The notes below the pieces were generated by a model. It was not told where the DNA came from. It saw only the letters and a program-made list of their open reading frames with translations, and made no database searches. A DNA stretch of 64,000 nt. It comes from Gammaproteobacteria bacterium. GTDB lineage: Bacteria > Pseudomonadota > Gammaproteobacteria > UBA12402. Shown here in pieces: positions 8,818-60,699 of this stretch. The number at the start of each line of letters is the position of its first letter. The first letter of the stretch is position 1. A program made the translations under genes and the position numbers. Location of the stretch: assembly GCA_018812595.1 (NCBI GenBank), contig JAHJDF010000002.1, forward strand, positions 1,790 through 65,789, read 5' to 3'.

Positions 8818-10227
8818 ATGACAACGGTTAGAACACGATTTGCCCCTAGTCCGACAGGACATTTGCATGTCGGTAGCGTGCATACCGCTCTTTATTCTTG
8901 GTTGATTGCCAAGAAATACAAAGGGCAATTTATCCTGCGCATTGAAGATACGGATTTAGAACGTTCAGAATCTACTCATGTGCAAACGATTTTGCAGTCC
9001 ATGGAATGGTTGGGGATGGATTATGACGAAGGGCCGTATTTTCAAACACAACGTTTAGCTCGTTATAAAGAAGTGATTGACCAGCTGTTAAAAGACGGGC
9101 TGGCGTATCGTTGTTATTGTTCTAAGGAAAGGCTTGAGCACTTGCGGGAATGCCAATTAGCCAATAAAGAAAAGCCTCGTTACGACGGTTGTTGCCGTAA
9201 TCAACATGAGTTTAAAGATTGTCCTTTTGTGATTCGTTTTCGTAACCCGGAAGAGGGTGTGGTTGCTTTTGATGATTTGGTGCATGGACATATTGAGTTT
9301 CAAAACAGTGAGCTCGATGATTTGATCATCGCAAGAGCAGACGGCTCACCGACCTATAATTTTTGTGTGGTTGTGGATGATTTGGATATGGGGATCACCC
9401 ACGTGATTCGTGGGGATGATCACGTCAACAATACGCCGCGACAAATCAATATTCTTCGTGCGCTAGGAGGCAAAGAACCTTTGTATGGACACGTGCCGAC
9501 GATTTTGGGACCAGATGGCAAAAAACTGTCTAAGCGGCATGGGGCTGTGAGTATTCAGCAGTTTCGTGACGATGGGTTTTTGCCACATGCATTGTTGAAT
9601 TACCTTGTGCGCTTAGGGTGGTCGCACGGGGATCAAGAAATTTTTTCGTTGGATGAAATGATTGAATATTTTGATTTTGATCACCTCAATAATTCTCCTG
9701 CCACGTTTGATATCGAAAAATTGTTGTGGTTGAACCAGCATTATTTGAAAGAAGCAAAATCAGAAGATTTGGTGCAAGAGTTGGATGCACAAATGGCGAA
9801 AGCAGGGGTGTCGATTTTAGACGGTCCGGATTTGGTGGATCTTATTCAAGTACAAAAAGAGCGTTGTAAAACGTTGGTCGATCTGGCCGAAAAGAGTCGT
9901 TATTTTTATGAAGATTTCACGGAATACGATGAAAAAGCAAAAGCGAAAAACTTGAAGAAAGAAGTGATTCCTGTGTTGCAAAGTGTGCTGACGAAATTGG
10001 AACTTGTGTCACATTGGAAAGCCGAACCGTTGCATGCATGCATTCTTCAAACGGCTGAAGATTTAGATTTGAAATTAGGAAAAGTCGCACAGCCTGTTCG
10101 CGTCGCTATCACCGGTGGTAGTGTTTCTCCTCCACTGGATGTCACTTTGGAATTAATAGGCCGTCATCGTTCCTTACACCGCATCAAAGAAGCTATTCAA
10201 ATTTGTGAGGCAGGGCTGTTGCATTAA
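8818..10227 (+). CDS. gltX: Glutamyl-tRNA synthetase
   Basis: Class I motifs PSPTGHLHVGS (HIGH) and KLSKRHG (KMSKS); 469 aa. Confidence 0.95.
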   Translation: MTTVRTRFAPSPTGHLHVGSVHTALYSWLIAKKYKGQFILRIEDTDLERSESTHVQTILQSMEWLGMDYDEGPYFQTQRLARYKEVIDQLLKDGLAYRCYCSKERLEHLRECQLANKEKPRYDGCCRNQHEFKDCPFVIRFRNPEEGVVAFDDLVHGHIEFQNSELDDLIIARADGSPTYNFCVVVDDLDMGITHVIRGDDHVNNTPRQINILRALGGKEPLYGHVPTILGPDGKKLSKRHGAVSIQQFRDDGFLPHALLNYLVRLGWSHGDQEIFSLDEMIEYFDFDHLNNSPATFDIEKLLWLNQHYLKEAKSEDLVQELDAQMAKAGVSILDGPDLVDLIQVQKERCKTLVDLAEKSRYFYEDFTEYDEKAKAKNLKKEVIPVLQSVLTKLELVSHWKAEPLHACILQTAEDLDLKLGKVAQPVRVAITGGSVSPPLDVTLELIGRHRSLHRIKEAIQICEAGLLH

Positions 10228-14099: not shown

Positions 14100-14164
14100 G
14101 AAAAAAAATCTTTTTAAATGCTCACGTATGTCTATATACGCTGCGCTTTAAAAAGATTTTTTTC
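14100..14164 (+). terminator. Long AT-rich hairpin (19-nt stems GAAAAAAAATCTTTTTAAA / TTTAAAAAGATTTTTTTC, 28-nt loop) after the tRNA pair
   Basis: Perfect inverted repeat read directly; T-run on 3' side. Confidence 0.45.
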
Positions 14165-14217
14165 ACCTGAATCTACGGCACTACTGACCGTCCTCAAGCA
14201 CTATCCGTAATTTATAT

Positions 14218-14841
14218 AACGTAGAGACGCGATTTATCGCGTCTCTATGTTTGGAAATATAGATCTTTTTTCCAATTCAATGGGTTATAGGTGATGTATT
14301 CAAGTACCTGTAGATATTCTTTTTCATCACGAATGACATGTTCGTAAAAACGAGGTTGCCATGAAAAATGGAAATTTCTTTTTCTAATTGCATAAGTGGT
14401 ACGCGCTTTATACCAACGAATAATGTGCGATAAATTTCCGTGTAGCATTGGATTATATTTTTGAGTAATTCCTCCTTTTTTACTTGCTGAAGCATTGTTC
14501 AAGAAATTTGAGCAGTACTTGTTAATAGTAATTACGCCATGTAGGTGATTAGGCATAAGAATCCAGGGATCCAGTTGTACAAATTGAAAATACTTGGGCA
14601 CTTGTCGCCAATGATCATTTGCTAATTGTCCGATTAAAGATAATTCCACTTCATTATCCAAAATGCGGCCAAACAAACATTTTCTATCTTTGATGCACAA
14701 GGTTACGAAATAAGCGCCTGGCTCGCCGTAGTCATAACCTTTGCTGCGTGTAGATGAAATACGGTATTTATTTCTGAATTTTTTCATTTCGAATCGATGG
14801 TATTTTTAATAAACGTAGAGACGCGATTTATCGCGTCTCTG
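14218..14841 (-). mobile_element. REP/RAYT unit: HuH Y1 transposase gene flanked by inverted family-A palindromes
   Basis: AACGTAGAGACGCGATTTATCGCGTCTCTATG at 14218-14249 and AACGTAGAGACGCGATTTATCGCGTCTCTGTG at 14810-14841 bracket the transposase ORF. Confidence 0.8.
14245..14787 (-). CDS. REP-associated tyrosine transposase (RAYT; IS200/IS605 TnpA Y1 family)
   Basis: 180 aa; HuH motif LMPNHLHGVI, conserved C-terminal Tyr region (RWYKARTTYAIRK); flanked by its cognate REP palindromes. Confidence 0.8.
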   Translation of the reverse strand: MKKFRNKYRISSTRSKGYDYGEPGAYFVTLCIKDRKCLFGRILDNEVELSLIGQLANDHWRQVPKYFQFVQLDPWILMPNHLHGVITINKYCSNFLNNASASKKGGITQKYNPMLHGNLSHIIRWYKARTTYAIRKRNFHFSWQPRFYEHVIRDEKEYLQVLEYITYNPLNWKKDLYFQT

Positions 14842-14852
14842 TGAAGCGGGGG

Positions 14853-15872
14853 TTACAAATACGTCGAATCGTTGGAGGTTTTTTTTAGGTTGTTTAAGAC
14901 TGTTTGGATGCTGGATTGGGTGAAGAGGGAAAGGCGATCTAAGGGGCTTTTTTTCTTTTTGTATTTGATTTCGTAGATGTCGTGTTGTTTAGCAGCATTT
15001 AATAAATAAGCGTCGCTCGTAATCAATTCGTCGACCATGTTTAATTCTTTTGCTTTTTTTGCAAACCAATATTCGCCGGTGGCGATGGCATCGATTTCTA
15101 CTTGCGGTCTATGTTGTTTTACGAATGATTTAAATAACTCATGCGCTTCGTTGATCTCTTCTTGAAATTTTTTGCGACCGTCTCGCGTGTTTTCCCCAAA
15201 CAAGGACAACGTGCGTTTGTATTCGCCGGCAGTGATTTGTTCGAATTCGATGTCGTTCTTTTTCAATACGCGATGGAAGTTGGGCAATTGTGCTAAAACG
15301 CCTATAGAGCCAATAATGGCAAACGGTGCAGCTAACAGTCGATCTGCAACACATGCCATCATGTAACCGCCGCTTGCGGCGATTTTGTCGACGGCGATGG
15401 TTAATGGAATGGCATTGTTTTTAATACGCTGTAGTTGGGAGGCGGCTAATCCGTATCCGTGCACAACGCCGCCGGAGCTTTCGAGACGCAACACAATTTC
15501 ATCGGTTGTTTTAGCAACCATCAAAATGGCAGAGATTTCTTCTCTTAACGTGTCGACGTTTTTTGCTTTTAAGTCCCCATCAAAATTTATGACAAAAATT
15601 CTTTTTTTCGAGACAGGCATTTGATCTTTGTTTTTCAACGCTTGTTTTTTTTCTTTCGCTAATTTTTTTCGTTCCTTTTTCGAAAGAATTTCCTCTTGAA
15701 TGGCTTCTGCCATCTTTTCATAAAATTGATTGATCTTTCGTATCGATAATTGTGGTTTTGATTTTGTTTTACTAAGCAGGGCAACGATGCCGGCAGTGAT
15801 GATCAAAATCGCAACGACAACGATAAATGTTTGTAGAAAAAATATCGCTAAATGAAGAAGTGCGTCGAGCAT
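14853..15872 (-). CDS. sohB: S49-family periplasmic serine peptidase (SohB / short SppA type)
   Basis: N-terminal TM then S49 core (IAASGGYMMACVADRLLAAPFAIIGSIGV); 339 aa. Confidence 0.7.
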   Translation of the reverse strand: MLDALLHLAIFFLQTFIVVVAILIITAGIVALLSKTKSKPQLSIRKINQFYEKMAEAIQEEILSKKERKKLAKEKKQALKNKDQMPVSKKRIFVINFDGDLKAKNVDTLREEISAILMVAKTTDEIVLRLESSGGVVHGYGLAASQLQRIKNNAIPLTIAVDKIAASGGYMMACVADRLLAAPFAIIGSIGVLAQLPNFHRVLKKNDIEFEQITAGEYKRTLSLFGENTRDGRKKFQEEINEAHELFKSFVKQHRPQVEIDAIATGEYWFAKKAKELNMVDELITSDAYLLNAAKQHDIYEIKYKKKKSPLDRLSLFTQSSIQTVLNNLKKTSNDSTYL

Positions 15873-20624: not shown

Positions 20625-22259
20625 GTGCAGTTATTGCGAGGAAACGAGTTAATACATTTATTTCTTCGTTTCTTTTGCATTGCTATGATGCCGCTTCATT
20701 TTTTCACAGGACTTCCCTCGATGTTTGAATCGCTTAAAAAAGACCGTTATTTGCGGTGGTTTTTAATCACCTTAATTACCGTTTTTATTGTCAAAAGTAT
20801 TCTTGCTAGCGTGTTTCCATTAACAGGAGACGAAGCATATTACGTGATCTGGGGGAAATTCTTTCAGTGGGGATATTACGATCACACGCCGTTTATTGGA
20901 TGGTTGTTGTGGCCTTTTGTCCATCTCAGTACCGCTAACTTTATCGTGCGCTTGCCGACGCTTCTTGTGACAACAGCAATTGGTATCGGACTGTATGGAT
21001 TTTTGCGATCGTATGATGCTGAAAAAGCATCGCTGATTGCTATTTTGTATTTGATTTCTCCTATCAATTTATGCGGTGTGTTGATCACGACAGACATTCC
21101 TTTGATCTTGTTTTCATTTTTTTCAGGGCTTTTTTTGGTGCTCGCGGTGCGAGAGCAGGATCATCTTGGCTATTATCTTTTATCCGGTTTGTGCTTAGGG
21201 TTGGCCTTTTTCTCGAAGTATTTTGCGGTGTTACTTGCGCTGGCGTATCTCTTTTATTTTCTGTTTTCTGAGAAATCGAAAAAAAGAACGCTTGGCTTTG
21301 TGCTTTTGTTTTTAGCTGTTTTGCCTTTTGGGTTAGAAAATCTTTATTGGAACTACAGCCACGATTGGGCAAATATTTTATTTAATGTCTTTAATAGGAA
21401 TCGAGGTATTACGTTTGAATGGCATACCGTCGCGCTTTATTTGTTAGTTGTTTTCTATATTGCAACGCCGCCCATTTTTTATTACTGCTGTAAGCATTGG
21501 AAAAAATTGTTTCGGTCGAGCGCTTTATTTGAATTTAACGTTTTAATCGTGTCTGTATTTGTGCCTTTAGTGTTCTTTTTAGGGTTGAGCACGATGAAGT
21601 CCATTGGGTTGCATTGGCCATTGTAGTTTGTGCCGTTTTTATATGCCCTTTTATTGATCTATTTATCGCGCATTGAGCTGGTGCGATGTATTCGCTTTAT
21701 GTTTGGGTTTTCTTTTGTGCATCTTGTGTTAATTGCGGTTGTTTTGTTGTTTCCTATCCAGATACTTCAGGCGCTCCACTTAAAAGGGCCTCGATATGCA
21801 GATTGGATTTTTGCATTGAAACATCGCGAAATAAGTCGTGTGCTGCATCAAGAAAATATGCAGTTTGTTCTTTCAAGTAATAGCTATGCGAAAGCAGATT
21901 TGATGTACATCGACAGCGGCAAGTACAGTCCTTCATTTGGGGTTGGTACAGCTCATGGCCGTGAAGGGGATTTTCTTACTAATTTTGCCGCAATGCAGGG
22001 AAAGAGCTTTTTAATCTTGCTGAATAGGCGGCCAGACCTTAGTGATTACTTGCCGTATTTCCATGTGACGCGTGTGCAGCCGTGGCGCTTTGATGGGGCA
22101 GTGTTTTATTTAGTGATGGGCTATCACTTTAATTATCTTGCTTATCGTCATGGTGTTCTCAAGGCAATCAATCAGCGTTATTGGACTGTGCCTTCGTTTT
22201 TACCGCATACCAAAAGTTTCTTTTTTAAGAAATATTGGTCCGCTGCGTTACCTCATTAA
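20625..22259 (+). pseudogene. ArnT/PMT-family (GT39/GT83-like) membrane glycosyltransferase apparently interrupted by an in-frame TAG at 21624-21626 (333-aa and 209-aa ORFs in the same frame)
   Basis: N-terminal part has LTGDEAYY motif and multiple TM helices; second ORF continues in the same frame (offset 1005 nt); combined length ~543 aa matches intact family members. Confidence 0.5.
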
Positions 22260-23195
22260 AAACGTAGAGACGCGATGAATAAGCGTCTTCGGATTAAGCA
22301 CATTCCTTTTAAGTATCTTTGCCAAGATATTTGGGTAATCCGTAATAATTCCATCGACACCAAAGTTCCTCATGAGCTGCATGTCCGCTGGATCGTTCAC
22401 AGTCCATGTGATGACCTTCAGGCCATTTTTATGCGCTTCTTGTATGCGGTCTGCGGTTAATTCTTGAAAATTAGGTCCCCAAATGTTCCCTCCTAACTGG
22501 GCAATCATGTAAGGAATCGAATTTTTATATTGCTTTAATAATTGATTATCAGACCAGAGTCCTGCAATGACAGGATTAGCTGAAGTCATGTCGTTTGAAA
22601 TGCGTGGGTCTGTTAGATAGGCCGTTTCGATTTTTGTTTGGGCCAGTTGGATGTTTTTTAAGACACGCCAATCAAAAGCTTGTATTTCGGTTCGATCTTC
22701 AATTTTTTCTTCTCTAATAATGTTGACGATTTCTTTAGCTAGATCTTCAGGTGTATGGGTGCGTTCTGGGTGTGAAGGGTCAGTTTTAACTTCAATTTGG
22801 AAACGTACCGGGTATTGGGCGTATTTTTTGAGGTATTGGATGACTTGTTTTAATGAGGAAATGTGTGTTCCGTCTATCGCTACCTGTTGTGAAAACTGGT
22901 GTGCGTAGTACGTATTAGGGTTTATGCGGCCAACGTCGTATTGCTGTAATTGTTCAAACGTTAAATCTTTAATACAAACCGCTTCATTGGCATCGATCCA
23001 TCGTCCATTTTGATCGCGTGTAATAAGCGGGTTCAGGGTTAAATGATGTGTGACTACAACAACATGATCTTTCGTCATGTTGACGTCCATATCAACGGCA
23101 TCGCTCTTTAGGTCGATAGCTTTTTTGAAGGCTGGAAGGGTGTTTTCAGGAGCCAGGCCTCGAGCTCCACGGTGGGCATAAATTTTTATTTTCAT
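22248..23195 (-). CDS. Glycerophosphodiester phosphodiesterase (GDPD family)
   Basis: N-terminus KIYAHRGARGLAPENTLPAFKKAI and ...HHLTLNPL typical of GlpQ/UgpQ. Confidence 0.85.
   Translation of the reverse strand: MKIKIYAHRGARGLAPENTLPAFKKAIDLKSDAVDMDVNMTKDHVVVVTHHLTLNPLITRDQNGRWIDANEAVCIKDLTFEQLQQYDVGRINPNTYYAHQFSQQVAIDGTHISSLKQVIQYLKKYAQYPVRFQIEVKTDPSHPERTHTPEDLAKEIVNIIREEKIEDRTEIQAFDWRVLKNIQLAQTKIETAYLTDPRISNDMTSANPVIAGLWSDNQLLKQYKNSIPYMIAQLGGNIWGPNFQELTADRIQEAHKNGLKVITWTVNDPADMQLMRNFGVDGIITDYPNILAKILKRNVLNPKTLIHRVSTFLMR
22260..22291. repeat. Degenerate family-A REP copy (AACGTAGAGACGCGATGAATAAGCGTCTTCGG)
   Basis: Left arm intact, right arm decayed; overlaps convergent gene ends. Confidence 0.6.
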
Positions 23196-28208: not shown

Positions 28209-28236
28209 CCATCCCCGCGAAAGCGGGGATGATGAT
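28209..28236. repeat. Family-B single hairpin (CATCCCCGCGAAAGCGGGGATG)
   Basis: Perfect 9-bp stem with GAAA loop. Confidence 0.8.
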
Positions 28237-28693: not shown

Positions 28694-28842
28694 CAATGTC
28701 CTTAATCAAGTGACTAGATTATGAGAATGAGAAAAATACGTAGAGACTATATGTCTCGTGTTTTCTTTTTCTCATTTTTCAACATAGAACAAATTTTGAA
28801 AACAGATTAAAAAAAAGCAATTTCAATGGAGCAAGCTTAGAT

Positions 28843-31735: not shown

Positions 31736-31814
31736 TGAACACAAATCCGTACGAGAGTGAATATCAGACGCCTACGCGGGAATAACAACAAGTACTATAG
31801 AAACACGATCGATT

Positions 31815-34800
31815 GTGTTTCTTGTTATTGCAGGAGCAAAAATGATGCCTCAGTTTCATCGAAGCAAACGCGTGATCAAAAAAGGGATGTTGCTTGCTTG
31901 GTATTTGTTAGCAGCTGGACTTATTTTTTTAGCTTTTGTTGTTTCAATCGCGCGAGGCATAACGCCTCAATTAAACAAACACAAACAACAGTTTGCGGCG
32001 TGGGCAGGACAGCAACTCAATCAGCCAATCAAAATTGGTCAAATGAGAGCTTGGTTTCAAGGCTTCTCTCCGGAAATCGTGTTTAGAGACGTTTCGATCT
32101 TAGATCGCACACAAAAGACAACTCTCACACACATCAAGGAACTGCAAGTCGACATTAATGTCTTGCGATCGATCTTGACCTTCCAATTACAGCCTTCACA
32201 GATTCATGTTGTGGGTACTTCGTTGAGCATTCATCAACAATCAGATGGCACGTACCAAATACAAGGCTTTCAACAGCACATTATTTCGGGCGGTGAAGAC
32301 AATAATCATGATTTCTTAGAATGGATTTTCTCTAGGAAAGCCTTGGTGTTTAGCGATGTCCAAATTGATTTTTATGGAAAAGATAAATCGCATTACCCGC
32401 TGATCTTTGATTCGCTCAAATTAGTCAATAAAGGTAAAACTCATGAATGCACAGGGCTTGTTCGCATTCAAAAATTTTCAGAACCCACAGTGCTCAACTT
32501 CAATTTATCGATTACGGGAGTAGTGGATCAATTAAAAGAAGCGGATATCTCTCTTTATTTATCGTTGAAACAAATTGATCTCAAAGATTGGCTAAAAGGC
32601 CGAACCTTCAAGCAATATCAATTGCAGGACGGTACCTTTACTGGAGATGTGTGGTTGCATATCGATAAGGGGCAACTAGAACGTGCTCAGACTTTGTTTG
32701 ATGCCTATAACGTTGTGTTGCAGCAAAAAGGAATCAAGCAACCTTTTGTTGTGAAATACCTGAAAGGAAATGCGGCACTTTTGTTTGATGCCGATCGTCA
32801 GTGGAAATTTACTCTGCAATTTAATCCATTATCGATTCCTCGTTGGAATGGTTTTCCAGGCGTTGAAAATGCTTCAGGTATCGTTGAGCTCAACGAACAG
32901 AATGGACAATTCTCGATTCAATCCAATCAGGTGCAATTGGATTTTGGAAAACTCTTTCCTCAATCCTTGTCTTTAGAAAAATTGCTTTTGCAAGGACGCT
33001 GGTTGAAGCGATTCGACCAATCGTGGGAGATCAGCGTGCCGCATTTTGAAGTGGTGAACGATCAGATTGCTTTAAATGGACAGGCAGGTTTGTTGCTTCC
33101 TTCTGACTTTAAAAATCCTGTGCTGAGCGTTTCAGCCGGTTTTGATTTAGAAGATCTTTCCACTGTTAAAAATTATTTACCGGTCGGTATTTTTACAAAG
33201 AATTTGACGCAATGGTTAAACGCGGCGTTTGTCGAAGGACAAGATGCGCAAGGAACTGTCGTTATTCGCGGGCCTATTGATGATTTTCCGTTTGGAGACC
33301 GTATGGGGACGTTTATCGTTGATAGCCAAGTGCATGATTTGCAATTTCATTTTGCTCCCGGGTGGCCCAACTTGGAGCATGTCGATTCACACCTTGTTTT
33401 TCATAATCGAAGTATGGTTTGTGATGCAATAGCAGGACAAGCATATGGCATTACTTTGCATGATGCGCATGCAGAGATTCCAGTGATTGGTAAAGCAAAT
33501 ATGTTCGAGCAATTATCTTTGCAGGCGCACTTAACAGGAGATGCGCAATATTATTTGGATTTTATCCATCATTCTCCCCTCGAAGACTCTATCGGAGACG
33601 ACTTGCAACCCTTTTCTATGAAGGGAAATGCTGGTTTAAGTTTGGGATTAGATGTCCCCTTATCGACTCCAGAAAAAACAAAAGTAAATGGCACGATAGA
33701 TCTAGAAAAAAACACGTTGAAAGCTGGGGCTCTCAATTTATTGGTGAACGACATCAATGGCCAAATTTCCTTTACCGAAAATACATTAAAGTCCAATCCA
33801 ATGACTGCAACCATTTTCGATGAACCGGCTACCTTGCAGTTAAGTTCCATTACAGGTGCGAATCCTGTGACGCGTTTAACGTGTGATAGTCGTATTGAAC
33901 TGGAGGTATTAAAGAAATATTTGCAGGTGAAAGATTTGCCTTATTTAAAAGGACAAACGAGTTATCACGCGGTTTTGGATATGAATACACATAAAAAAAA
34001 TGATTCGCAAAATGTATTGACCGTGCAATCAGACCTTCAAGGGGTAGAGGTCGATTTGCCTCAACCGTTGGGTAAAGACGCAAACAGCACGATGCCGATT
34101 AATCTGAAAGTCTGGTTAGGAGGGCAACTGCCACCGCAGGTGTTGTTGCGTTATGGGGCGGACTTTAGTGCTGCATTGAATTACAAACACGTAGAGAAAC
34201 AGTTGAAATTATTTAGCGTGAATTTGCATTTGGGCAAAACGGATGCTGAATTTCAAAAGCAGCCGGGCTTGTATATAGACGGCACGTTAAAGACGTTCGA
34301 TTGGGCTTATTGGAAAAATTTCTATAACGAAATCAAACAGAAGTTAGCGGCGCAAAAAAATGGGGCGGCGACGAGTCTTCAGAATCAGCTTCGAACCATT
34401 CAAGTAAATATTGAGCAACTGAATTTATTCGGACTTGCATTTCCAGATACGGTAGTGAGCTATCAGCCTCAAGAGGATGCCTCGCGTTTAAGCTTCAAGG
34501 GAAGCCGTGTGGATGGATATGTGCTGATTGCAAAGAATTATAAAACGCAAGGCCTCACAGGAATCTTCAAGAAACTGTATTTATTCGACGCCAAGGCCAA
34601 AGAGACGCCTGTGAAAACAGATATTGTGCCTAGTCAATTACCTCCTTTGACTTTGCAGATTGATGATTTTAAGCAAGGGAAGAAAACGTATGGTCAAGTT
34701 GCCTTGATCGCAAAACCAGGTTTGCATGTTTATCAGTTGGCTAAAATCACTCTTCGTTCACCGTTGTTGAAAGCAGAAATGCAAGGGGAGTGGGCGGATG

Positions 34801-51036: not shown

Positions 51037-51066
51037 TTTTGTTTGTTAAGAGACGCGGTGAATCGC
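51037..51066. repeat. Family-A REP palindrome (TAAGAGACGCGGTGAATCGCGTCTCTACAG) between convergent genes
   Basis: Direct reading. Confidence 0.8.
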
Positions 51067-51070
51067 GTCT

Positions 51071-52384
51071 CTACAGTTTTCCCCATAAATCATATGCATC
51101 GGCGTCTGTTATTTTTACTTTCACAAAATCCCCAGGGAGTAACTGAAAAGATCCTTCTATAAATACATTGCCATCGACTTCGGGAGCGTCGCCTTCTGAG
51201 CGTCCAATCATCTGATCTTCTGTTACTTCATCCACCAATACTTCTATTGTTTTGCCGATTTTCTTCTGCATCTTTTCTTCACTGATGTCTGCTTGCAAAG
51301 TCATGAGTGCTTCTAGCCGTTGTTCTTTGACGTCTTCAGGAATGTAGTCTGGCAGTTCATTGGCTTTTGCGCCTTTGACTTGTGAGTATTTGAAACATCC
51401 CACGCGATCTAATTGCGCGTTCTCTAAAAAGCGTAACAATTCTTCAAATTCTTGATCCGTTTCACCCGGAAAACCCACAATGAATGTGCTGCGAATCGTT
51501 AAATTGGGGCATTGTTCTCGCCACTTTGAGATGCGTTCTAGCATTTTCTCCGTATGAGCCGGACGACGCATCAGCTCCAGAATACGTGCGTTTGCATGCT
51601 GTAAAGGTACATCGAGGTACGGAAGGATTTTTCCTTCGGCCATCAATGGAATCAGTTCATCAACGTTGGGGTAGGGATAGAGATAATGCAGTCGAATCCA
51701 TATGCCGAATTCCCCTAACGTCTTTGCTAGATCCAATAGGTTGGTTTTTAACGGGCGTCCTTTCCAAAAGTCTGTTTTAAATTTTAAGTCACTTCCGTAA
51801 GCGCTGGTGTCTTGTGCGATGATCAACAGTTCTTTAACACCTGCGTTCACGAGCGTTTCTGCCTCATCCAAAATGTTTCCAATAGAGCGGCTGACAAGAG
51901 GGCCGCGCAATTCAGGGATGATGCAATACGTGCATTGATGATTGCATCCTTCTGAAATTTTCAAATAAGCATAATGGGATGGTGTGAGTTTGATGCCTTG
52001 TTTTGGCAAGGAAGTAGCAACAGCATGGCGTGGCGGAGATAAATGCTGATGAACCAGTTGCAACACAGCTTTTGTATCGTTTGGCCCGACAATGCCGAGT
52101 ACGAGCGGGAATTGCTCCAATATCGTCACTTTTCGTTTTCCAAGGCAGCCCATTACGATGACTTTGCCGTTTTCGAGCAAGGCTTCTTTGATGGCAAGGA
52201 GCGATTCTTCGATGGCTTCGTTAATAAAGGCGCACGTATTGATGATGATGAGGTCTGCTTGTTTGTAATCGTCTACGATTTCATACCCTTCACGGCGCAA
52301 TTCCGTCATGACTTGTTCAGAATCCACCAAAGCTTTTGCGCACCCTAAGCTCACAAATCCAATAGCAGGTTTTTGTTCTGACAT
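51071..52384 (-). CDS. rimO: Ribosomal protein S12 methylthiotransferase RimO (radical SAM, MTTase)
   Basis: N-terminal MTTase domain ([17 protein letters not shown]...INTCAFI), radical-SAM CxxxCxx[15 protein letters not shown] domain. Confidence 0.9.
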
Positions 52385-59944: not shown

Positions 59945-60028
59945 CGTAGCAACTGTATCGTCATGCCCGCGAAAGCGGGCATCCAGAAAATATATATACC
60001 TGGATTCTTAGCTTTCGCGGGGGTGACG
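59945..60028. repeat. Full composite family-B element, near-identical to 50398-50482
   Basis: GTAGCAACTGTATCGTCATGCCCGCGAAAGCGGGCATCCAGAAAATATATATACCTGGATTCTTAGCTTTCGCGGGGGTGACGG. Confidence 0.85.
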
Positions 60029-60041
60029 GTGGATCACATGC

Positions 60042-60073
60042 TGTAGAGACGCGATAAATCGCGTCTCTACGTT
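60042..60073. repeat. Family-A REP palindrome (TGTAGAGACGCGATAAATCGCGTCTCTACGTT)
   Basis: Direct reading; 14 nt after the family-B element. Confidence 0.8.
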
Positions 60074-60090
60074 TGAGTAGAGAAAACGAT

Positions 60091-60565: not shown

Positions 60566-60608
60566 GTAATAACTGTATCGTCATGCCCGCGAAAGCGGGC
60601 ATCCAGAC
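60566..60608. repeat. Family-B left half element (AATAACTGTATCGTCATGCCCGCGAAAGCGGGCATCCAGACAGG)
   Basis: Direct reading after tadA stop. Confidence 0.8.
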
Positions 60609-60699
60609 AGGCGGCTTAATAGGGCAGCTGGATCCTAGGCTTTCAAAGGGGTAACGATGGGGCATGCGGTAGAGACTATATTCCTTTCGTCTTTTCTCG

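Follow-up and report, generated by a model that had tools for sequence, protein, structure and literature searches.

The 64,000-nucleotide stretch analysed here (the window; positions 1,790 to 65,789 of contig JAHJDF010000002.1, from an uncultured gammaproteobacterium) contains at 14,218–14,841 a locus that we identify, with a probability of roughly 0.85, as a REPtron, namely a single-copy gene for a REP-associated tyrosine transposase (RAYT, or TnpAREP), a domesticated transposase of single-stranded DNA, with its cognate flanking repetitive extragenic palindromes (REPs), most consistent with TnpAREP subclass 2.4. This subclass of Quentin et al. 2018 (BMC Genomics 19:475, PMC6006769) is the same as Bertels group 4, and placement in it is suggested by motifs and neighbours, not by a tree. 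Cognate GTAG hairpins lie on both sides of the RAYT gene and at nine or more other sites. An initial annotation of this DNA had proposed that the REP/RAYT unit is intact and has a dispersed REP family of its own, a proposal that protein homology, predicted fold and the anatomy of the repeats all back.

The RAYT gene and its product

The gene is an uninterrupted minus-strand open reading frame (ORF; 14245–14787) of 180 aa that contains LMPNHLHGVI, as had been reported when its product was first called a HuH Y1 transposase; it is currently annotated merely as a "transposase", and homologues carry the source annotation "REP element-mobilizing transposase RayT". The protein matches the NCBIfam family REP_Tyr_transpos (NF047646) with E=2e-17, and a phmmer search of all PDB sequences gave one significant match, the Escherichia coli TnpAREP of structure 4ER8. 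In the alignment of these two proteins PNHLHG lies opposite PEHMHC, which places the HuH motif at H81-L-H83, and WQPRFYEHVIR...EYITYNP lies opposite WQPRFWEHAIR...DYIYINP, so that the catalytic tyrosine segment Y164-I-T-Y-N168-P169 of the RAYT faces Y115-I-Y-I-N119-P120 of 4ER8. The GTAG-contact positions of the E. coli enzyme, W94, Q95, E100, H101 and R104, correspond to W143, Q144, E149, H150 and R153 of the RAYT (the roles of these residues, including the GTAG contacts and the essential N119 in E. coli, are from PMC6006769).

A clade alignment of 46 sequences (the window RAYT and 45 homologues) is invariant at T29, P79, H81, H83, G84, W143, Q144, Y164, N168 and W172, and the consensus of the 45 nearest homologues reads NHxH, WQ and YIxNNP (also MPNHxHG). 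The AlphaFold2 (AF2) model built on this alignment has a mean predicted local distance difference test score (pLDDT) of 85.8 and a predicted template-modelling score (pTM) of 0.80, with one low-confidence loop at residues 90–118. When this model was compared with the PDB by Foldseek, the best match was 4ER8_A (E=3.7e-8; TM-score 0.57 by model length and 0.62 by 4ER8 chain length), followed by the TnpA proteins of IS608, ISDra2 and IS200. The initial annotation had proposed to check by alignment for a missing HuH motif or catalytic Tyr; both are present (H81-L-H83 and Y164), and the enzyme looks intact.

The GC content of the RAYT gene is 35%, against 42% for the window, and the named sources among its nearest homologues are Bacteroidota. 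No homologue above 48% identity was present among 5.8 billion protein clusters, and no paralogue was found within the 64-kb window. The gene was probably imported horizontally.

The REP family and its behaviour among sibling strains

The REPs that flank the RAYT gene share the GTAG-headed palindrome AACGTAGAGACGCGAT-TT-ATCGCGTCTCT and are identical to one another over 29 nt (AACGTAGAGACGCGATTTATCGCGTCTCT). A search of the window for AGAGACGCGATNNATCGCGTCTCT, allowing up to 3 mismatches, gave six sites (14223, 14817, 30343, 51049, 60045 and 60710), and 100 dinucleotide-preserving shuffles gave 0 matches in all trials; no strong REP copies are expected by chance. The head GTAGAGAC is present 10 times in the window, where 1.6 occurrences are expected. 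The five further copies that had been listed in the initial annotation are all real, including the decayed one at 22260, to within 3–12 nt of the stated positions; of these, 30342 and 60042 are good and 51037 and 60700 are about 10 nt off, and the list lacked the relics at 28740–28757 and 60669–60698 and a possible further one at 31799–31822.

We aligned 10 copies, seven of them the full-length copies of the window, two from the 10 kb to its left and one from a sibling strain. The unit is asymmetric and consists of an A-rich leader (AAC or AAAC), GTAG, a 10–11-bp G+C-rich stem (A)GAGACGCGAT, a 2-nt loop and a return arm. GTAG precedes the stem in eight of the 10 copies (the remaining two have GTTG and TTTG), the loop is TT, TC or TG in 8/10, and the core of 25 nt, CGTAGAGACGCGATTTATCGCGTCTC, is identical in four. 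Conservation of the head, the leader and the TY loop is one-sided, and nothing is conserved past the return arm; the REP at 60043–60070 (GTAG...CTAC) is the sole aligned copy with feet on both sides. One of the two REPs from the left 10 kb has a compensatory G>A/C>T change in its stem. Covariation statistics on the 10 copies, which are few and alike, found one compensatory pair and no difference from shuffles, and an Rfam scan reported four tRNAs only, with no family at the REP sites.

Proteins identical to those of the window are encoded in several metagenome-assembled genomes, among them GCA_018829805.1, GCA_018824895.1, GCA_018822115.1, GCA_018821805.1 and GCA_043810905.1 (all "Gammaproteobacteria bacterium"), and these sibling assemblies are 99.6–100% identical to the window. 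The host lineage is isolated, since the nearest MreC outside this population is just 56% identical. In a relative whose MreC is 51% identical the mreB-mreC spacer is 27 nt long, and no REP-like sequence was found in 19 kb of that relative. The exact RAYT protein occurs at one locus only in all sibling assemblies, and in every assembly this locus is bordered by sohB and, at its opposite end, by tRNA-Glu, tRNA-Ala and a ClC-type channel gene.

The gap between sohB and the RAYT gene differs among the siblings. Two strains (L121 at 9877–9970 and L124 at 6712–6805) have two REPs 72 bp apart in this gap, and the window (14840–14853) and L122 each have one REP there, bordered by the sequences that lie on the outside of the doublet. 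The 72-bp indel amounts to one extra REP plus about 50 nt, the doublet being direct. This is a REP-bounded deletion or duplication polymorphism that segregates among near-identical strains, and its junctions are as expected from recombination or slippage between two REPs. Six sibling contigs end inside REPs, which is the usual effect of repeated or palindromic sequence on assemblers and is weak evidence. A bias of the REPs with respect to the replication strand was considered and discarded, as their heads are split about evenly between the strands and the GC skew is positive throughout the window.

Several observations weigh against our identification of the locus as a REPtron. The flanking REPs, which had been described as inverted copies of a palindrome that bracket the gene, do bracket it and are not inverted: they are direct repeats, in both of which the plus strand carries the A-rich leader, the AACGTAG head and the TT loop. 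The REPs here are singletons, without clear REPINs (inverted REP doublets), and the sole inverted pair in the window (60669/60710), a possible degenerate inverted doublet, has one decayed arm. Our count of nine full-length REPs (eight strong and one decayed) covers only ~74 kb of this organism's genome (the window plus 10 kb on its left), and a metagenome scan with a lineage-tuned 23-mer found 69 stretches, none of them from the source organism. The dispersed REP sites are all common to the sibling strains; because these are 99.6–100% identical, such sharing says nothing on mobility. On the protein side, the NF047646 score is 63.4 bits against a curated cut-off of 80, and the one Pfam family that appears, Y1_Tnp, does so at E=0.016 and 15.8 bits against a threshold of 23 (at E<0.01 Pfam gave no match); the homology is significant, yet the protein is a divergent member of the family. 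Its C-terminal motif is NPLNWK instead of NP(L/V)(R/K)xG, with NP-L kept and (R/K)xG not. Lastly, the window RAYT gene has no in-gene REP between the HuH and Tyr codons.

One rival possibility is that REP, gene and REP together form an autonomous IS200/IS605-type element. Its left and right ends would be the two direct hairpins, and the dispersed palindromes would represent solitary ends or miniature versions of it. The flanking hairpins, identical and on the same strand as at IS200/IS605 ends, bracket the gene tightly (26 nt upstream and an overlap with the stop codon), the GC content of the gene is below that of its host, and the IS608 and ISDra2 TnpAs are its next-best structural matches. 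Such an element is nonetheless very improbable, as the gene sits at a single locus in every sibling assembly with no close paralogue anywhere in the protein collection, the 74 kb contain at least nine palindromes for one RAYT gene, and tnpB is absent. The protein itself is also closer to TnpAREP, matching NCBIfam REP_Tyr_transpos with Y1_Tnp below threshold and having YxxxNP, not YxxxQ.

We regard it as unlikely that this is a fossil system, in which the RAYT would be intact by chance or kept for some other reason and the REPs would be old, fixed and no longer mobilised. All dispersed REPs are indeed fixed among the sampled strains, several are decayed (22260, 28740, 60669 and perhaps 31799), and upstream of the RAYT gene there is no predicted promoter and no good ribosome-binding site. 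Set against this, the ORF has its full length and retains all catalytic and DNA-contact residues, four REPs have the identical 25-nt core, and the REP-bounded indel segregates among near-identical strains; the sampled strains are moreover too close to one another for turnover to show.

If the REPtron identification is right, a mechanism can be proposed by analogy with the E. coli enzyme and the IS200/IS605 paradigm. A monomeric HuH/Tyr enzyme would bind the folded REP hairpin on single-stranded DNA, read its GTAG foot through the conserved W-Q...E-H..R patch, and cleave and rejoin DNA by way of a covalent 5'-phosphotyrosine bond at Y164. REP units would thereby be copied or moved to new sites and the RAYT gene itself would stay put, the surviving REPs being those at permissive sites, namely gene 3' ends and convergent spacers. 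The RAYT gene is preceded by neither a promoter-like site nor a good ribosome-binding site and is separated from sohB by a REP hairpin; its expression is therefore probably low and due to read-through from sohB across that hairpin.

Gene context of the REPs and transcription termination

Every REP copy in the window is found at the 3' end of a gene or in a convergent spacer, and 0 lie between divergent genes (Table 1); the contexts given in the initial annotation, after stop codons or between convergent genes and near mreB/mreC, tadA, tgt and rimO, are as it stated, the spacers concerned being mreB/mreC, pepD/tadA, tadA/tgt and ORF167/rimO. NCBIfam names the neighbouring products MreB, MreC, RimO, beta-Ala-His dipeptidase (PepD-like), TadA, Tgt and SohB. 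The REP upstream of the RAYT gene lies 26 nt before its ATG and ~12 nt after the sohB stop codon. In the 10 kb to the left of the window there are two more REPs, one in the lptB-hpf spacer and one behind a gene of 1835 aa.

Table 1. Positions of the RAYT gene, the REPs and a second repeat family in the window and in sibling L211
Feature	Position	Strand	Remarks
RAYT/TnpAREP gene	14245..14787, stop codon included	-	ORF, NCBIfam match, 4ER8 alignment, clade alignment and AF2 model
REP at RAYT 3' end, facing tRNA-Glu	14218..14246	+	head AAC-GTAG, stem of 11 bp, TT loop; far end overlapped by the RAYT stop codon (TAG)
REP between sohB stop codon (14853) and RAYT start (14787)	14811..14840	+	
Decayed REP AAACGTAGAGACGCGATGAATAAGCGTCTT	22260..22289	+	directly after PMT_2 stop codon, at convergent PMT_2/GDPD junction
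Short REP variant or relic GTAGAGACTATATGTCTC = GTAGAGAC-TATAT-GTCTC	28740..28757	+	upstream of mreB
REP in mreB-mreC spacer, 4 nt past mreB stop codon	30343..30372	-	terminator-like on both strands
Possible strongly diverged REP relic AGAAACACGATCGATTGTGTTTCT, membership uncertain	31799..31822	.	between mreD and yhdP
REP between convergent ORF167 and rimO	51049..51078	-	rimO stop codon is TAG of GTAG head
"Double-foot" REP in pepD-tadA spacer, ~20 nt before tadA ATG	60043..60074	-	
Decayed head-bearing REP relic GTAGAGACTATATTCCTTTCGTCTTTTCTC	60669..60698	+	head outward, opposite the 60710 copy
REP between convergent tadA and tgt	60710..60739	-	tgt stop codon is TAG of GTAG head
Second repeat family	2009-2158, 7517-7644, 8723-8784, 28210-28231, 45516-45555, 59960-60035, 60575-60650; L211 12930-13265		

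REPs have small-scale effects on genes, consisting of three stop codons in REP heads, one REP-derived gene end and the 72-bp indel. The stop codons of RAYT, rimO and tgt are each the TAG within the (G/A)TAG head of a REP, and in the stretch 22248–22300 a minus-strand GDPD ORF (glycerophosphodiester phosphodiesterase-like) reads through the decayed REP, from which its end (...TLIHRVSTFLMR) is derived.

A further possibility is that REPs matter to the cell chiefly as RNA elements co-opted by the host, serving as terminators, attenuators or 3'-end stabilisers behind mreB, sohB, pepD, lptB and other genes, with one of them gating RAYT expression; such a role would add to the REPtron reading and is not an alternative to it. 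The hairpins are strong when folded as RNA (−16 to −21.5 kcal/mol), and REPs are known to stabilise mRNA and to attenuate transcription (PMC3733652; PMC6006769). The copies behind sohB and mreB (14817, on the minus strand, and 30344) satisfy a loose hairpin-plus-T-tract rule, the former reading on the minus strand as a hairpin followed by ACGTTTATTA, and the two REPs of the left 10-kb extension have T-rich tails that satisfy the same rule. In tandem-gene spacers, five of six REPs place the hairpin and then (U)ACGUUU in the mRNA sense. Terminator-like tails are present, however, in only 2/7 window REPs (4/9 with the left extension), and the earlier statement that several copies are followed by T-runs was too generous, as only 14817 and 30344 satisfy the loose rule within the window. 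The T-run, moreover, arises simply as the complementary strand of the AAAC leader that belongs to the element, and need not have been selected.

Nor does the 5/6 tally reach significance. The initial annotation had suggested checking REPs for orientation relative to transcription; the sense orientation holds for this organism (5/6) and not elsewhere, since a crude ORF-context count at metagenome loci L125–L193 that have the same REP variant put 13 copies in long ORFs, 12 in tandem contexts in antisense and 5 in sense orientation, 7 between convergent genes and 0 between divergent ones. Divergent (promoter) spacers are avoided generally; sense orientation is not general. Orientation bias as a sign of selection was dropped as a candidate, the relic at 28740 having turned 5/5 into 5/6 and the trend in other organisms being the opposite. 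We consider a chiefly regulatory role for the family possible, though rather unlikely; for the individual REPs behind sohB and mreB and the two in the left extension, a terminator or attenuator function is plausible from their sequence. The co-option as terminators or attenuators suggested in the initial annotation is conjectural. For annotation purposes, the label that suits these hairpins is that of REPs belonging to a RAYT system, and not that of regulatory sites of unknown kind or of bona fide terminators.

Other features of the region were seen in passing. Between tRNA-Glu and the REP at the RAYT 3' end, an AT-rich inverted repeat at 14101–14165 (AAAAAAAATCTTTTTAAA ... TTTAAAAAGATTTTTTT) has the appearance of a bidirectional terminator serving both the tRNA pair and the sohB-RAYT unit. 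The PMT_2-family glycosyltransferase gene next to the decayed REP at 22260 is split in the window and in L122 by a TAG stop codon at 21624–21626 (TCG in L121), giving ORFs 20625–21626 and 21630–22259 in the window where L121 encodes a single protein of 512 aa; the strains thus differ by a nonsense polymorphism. To the left of the window, L211 10736–12935 has lptB, a REP, hpf and rapZ, and rpoN is not between lptB and hpf; the usual gammaproteobacterial order is lptB-rpoN-hpf. A second, more abundant repeat family consists of GTCATTCCCGCGAAAGCGGGAATCC / GTCATCCCCGCGTAGGCGGGGATCC hairpins, which frequently form inverted pairs or tandem arrays, and adjoins the RAYT-associated REPs in the pepD-tadA and tadA-tgt spacers. 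The copy number of one of its tandem arrays differs between siblings L211 and L212, and an indel near 7628–7666 also segregates among the sibling strains.

The REP stem beyond this organism and comparison with known systems

We scanned genomes, one per species, with the pattern GAGACGCGATNNATCGCGTCTC, for which about one chance match is expected in 596 Gb, and obtained at least 120 stretches, all matches listed being from other organisms. Among the matches listed, the REP stem is identical base for base over 22 nt (GAGACGCGAT-NN-ATCGCGTCTC) in Cyanobacteria, Bacteroidota, several candidate phyla radiation phyla, Omnitrophota and Chlorobiota, and further in Spirochaetia, Deferribacteres, Methylococcales (Gammaproteobacteria) and others. 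GTA...TAC flanks nearly all of the listed matches, though it lies outside the search pattern, and most of the at least 120 matches in other phyla are double-foot. Because the stem has two BsmBI/Esp3I sites, we considered contamination or an artefact of cloning and rejected it, since complete isolate genomes, for example those of Calothrix and Fischerella, also contain the palindrome.

RAYT homologues lie within the same 8-kb stretch as the palindrome in 9/120 of the matches listed. Eight of these nine are full-length or nearly so and 28–51% identical to the window RAYT, and the ninth (L065) is a 34-residue fragment with 62% identity. Homologues fetched by protein have the same palindrome, or the same outline with another inner stem (GTAGGGACATCACATGTGATGTCCCTAC, ACAGACGCCCAAATTGGGCGTCTCTAC or GTAGAGACAAGGCATGCCTTGTCTCTAC), and those with other inner stems retain the GTAGAGAC...GTCTCTAC outline. 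REPs occur in frame inside the RAYT genes of L004, L035, L072, L073, L079, L088, L194, P0001, P0002 and P0004, in one to three copies mostly after the HuH codons, where they encode RDA(I/M)(N/H)RVST or (V/A)ETR(L/F)IAS (seen as ...RDAINRVST... or ...ETRLIAS...). Such in-gene REPs in other phyla are not new, being a published hallmark of subclass 2.4. The closest homologue, P0001 (best E-value; 43–46% identity), is at L194 (GCA_031421935.1, JANOPQ010000062.1), within a type I restriction-modification operon, where it is flanked by an Abi_2 gene and by hsdR, and has REPs in the gene and none flanking it. The stem was also found in 33 viral-contig stretches (IMG/VR, L215–L247) with GC contents of 36 to 62% and no more than three copies each, and two viral contigs (L248 and L249) encode RAYT relatives; these contigs could be carriers for spread between phyla, or host DNA misassigned to viruses.

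A full-text literature search for GAGACGCGAT found no REP paper, published consensus sequences sitting in figures and supplements. The accepted picture is one of fast RAYT-REP co-evolution, from which a base-specific reading of the whole stem would differ. We suggest tentatively, and with considerable doubt, that the identity of the stem across phyla may reflect either such a base-specific reading or movement of REPtrons between phyla; if subclass-2.4 REPtrons still move in this way, the window copy would be a recent import with phages as possible carriers. As part of the same suggestion the REP may be a portable attenuator, including before its own RAYT, because in this genome the A-rich leader makes each copy, in one of its orientations, a hairpin with a U-tract. 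That the stem is identical across phyla may merit a comparative study of its own.

How does the locus compare with systems already described? Subclass 2.4 has the motifs NH[IFV]H, WQ and YIxNNP, a variable stretch inserted between HuH and Tyr, and REPs that are long or "double-foot" (GT[AG]G ... C[TC]AC) and in frame within the gene, and it abounds in Cyanobacteria and in Bacteroidetes and is scattered elsewhere (PMC6006769); group 4 RAYTs are rare among Proteobacteria according to Bertels, Gallie & Rainey 2017 (PMC5581495). Like this subclass, the clade of homologues has MPNHxHG, WQ and YIxNNP with a mean length of ~190 aa, the window RAYT has a variable low-confidence loop between HuH and Tyr, the REPs are long and GTAG-footed or "double-foot", the nearest homologues have in-gene REPs, and the spread is patchy over many phyla. 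The differences are the gammaproteobacterial host, the NHLH and YITYNP of the window RAYT (each one residue off the published motifs, with WQ present), the lack of an in-gene REP, a trait that is frequent in the subclass and not universal, and the prevalence in the window genome of REPs with a single foot and an A-rich leader.

The E. coli TnpAREP REPtron was reportedly described by Ton-Hoang et al. in 2012. With the E. coli enzyme (YafM; structure 4ER8, Messing et al. 2012, PMC3479197) the window RAYT shares the HuH/Y1 fold, the HuH motif, the tyrosine (Y115/Y164), the asparagine (N119/N168) and the GTAG-contact residues, and both systems have a 5' GTAG on their cognate hairpins and a single-copy gene flanked by REPs. 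The two proteins are only ~22% identical over the structural alignment, and whereas E. coli REPs have bulged stems and form bacterial interspersed mosaic elements (BIMEs) or REPINs, with inverted pairs around the gene, window REPs have perfect stems, are singletons and flank the gene directly. A REPIN is an inverted doublet of ~60–110 bp, unlike the window singletons and the direct doublet of the siblings. Classical RAYTs as defined by Nunvar et al. 2010 (PMC2817692) have an N-terminal Thr, NP(L/V)(R/K)xG and inverted flanking REPs; of these the window RAYT keeps the Thr (T29), with NPLNWK in place of the motif and direct flanking REPs.

In common with the GTAG-tagged REP superfamily of Di Nocera, De Gregorio & Rocco 2013 (PMC3733652), the REPs described here have a terminal GTAG, a 6–13 bp stem and a very short loop that fits TY, are associated with REPtrons, and lie downstream of ORFs, between convergent or unidirectional genes, or overlapping gene 3' ends; their stem is AGACGCGAT, and the consensus sequences of the 24 published GTAG families are in a figure. 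IS200/IS605 elements (IS608, ISDra2) resemble the locus in the HuH/Y1 enzyme, the single-stranded DNA hairpins and the placement of same-strand hairpins at both gene ends, and they differ in being multi-copy and mobile as a unit, with a dimeric enzyme, YxxxQ and often tnpB, none of which is seen at the window locus. The system itself has already been described, and the window locus adds to it a member of a known, well-characterised subclass in an unusual host, that is, a proteobacterial host for RAYTs known mostly from Cyanobacteria and Bacteroidota.

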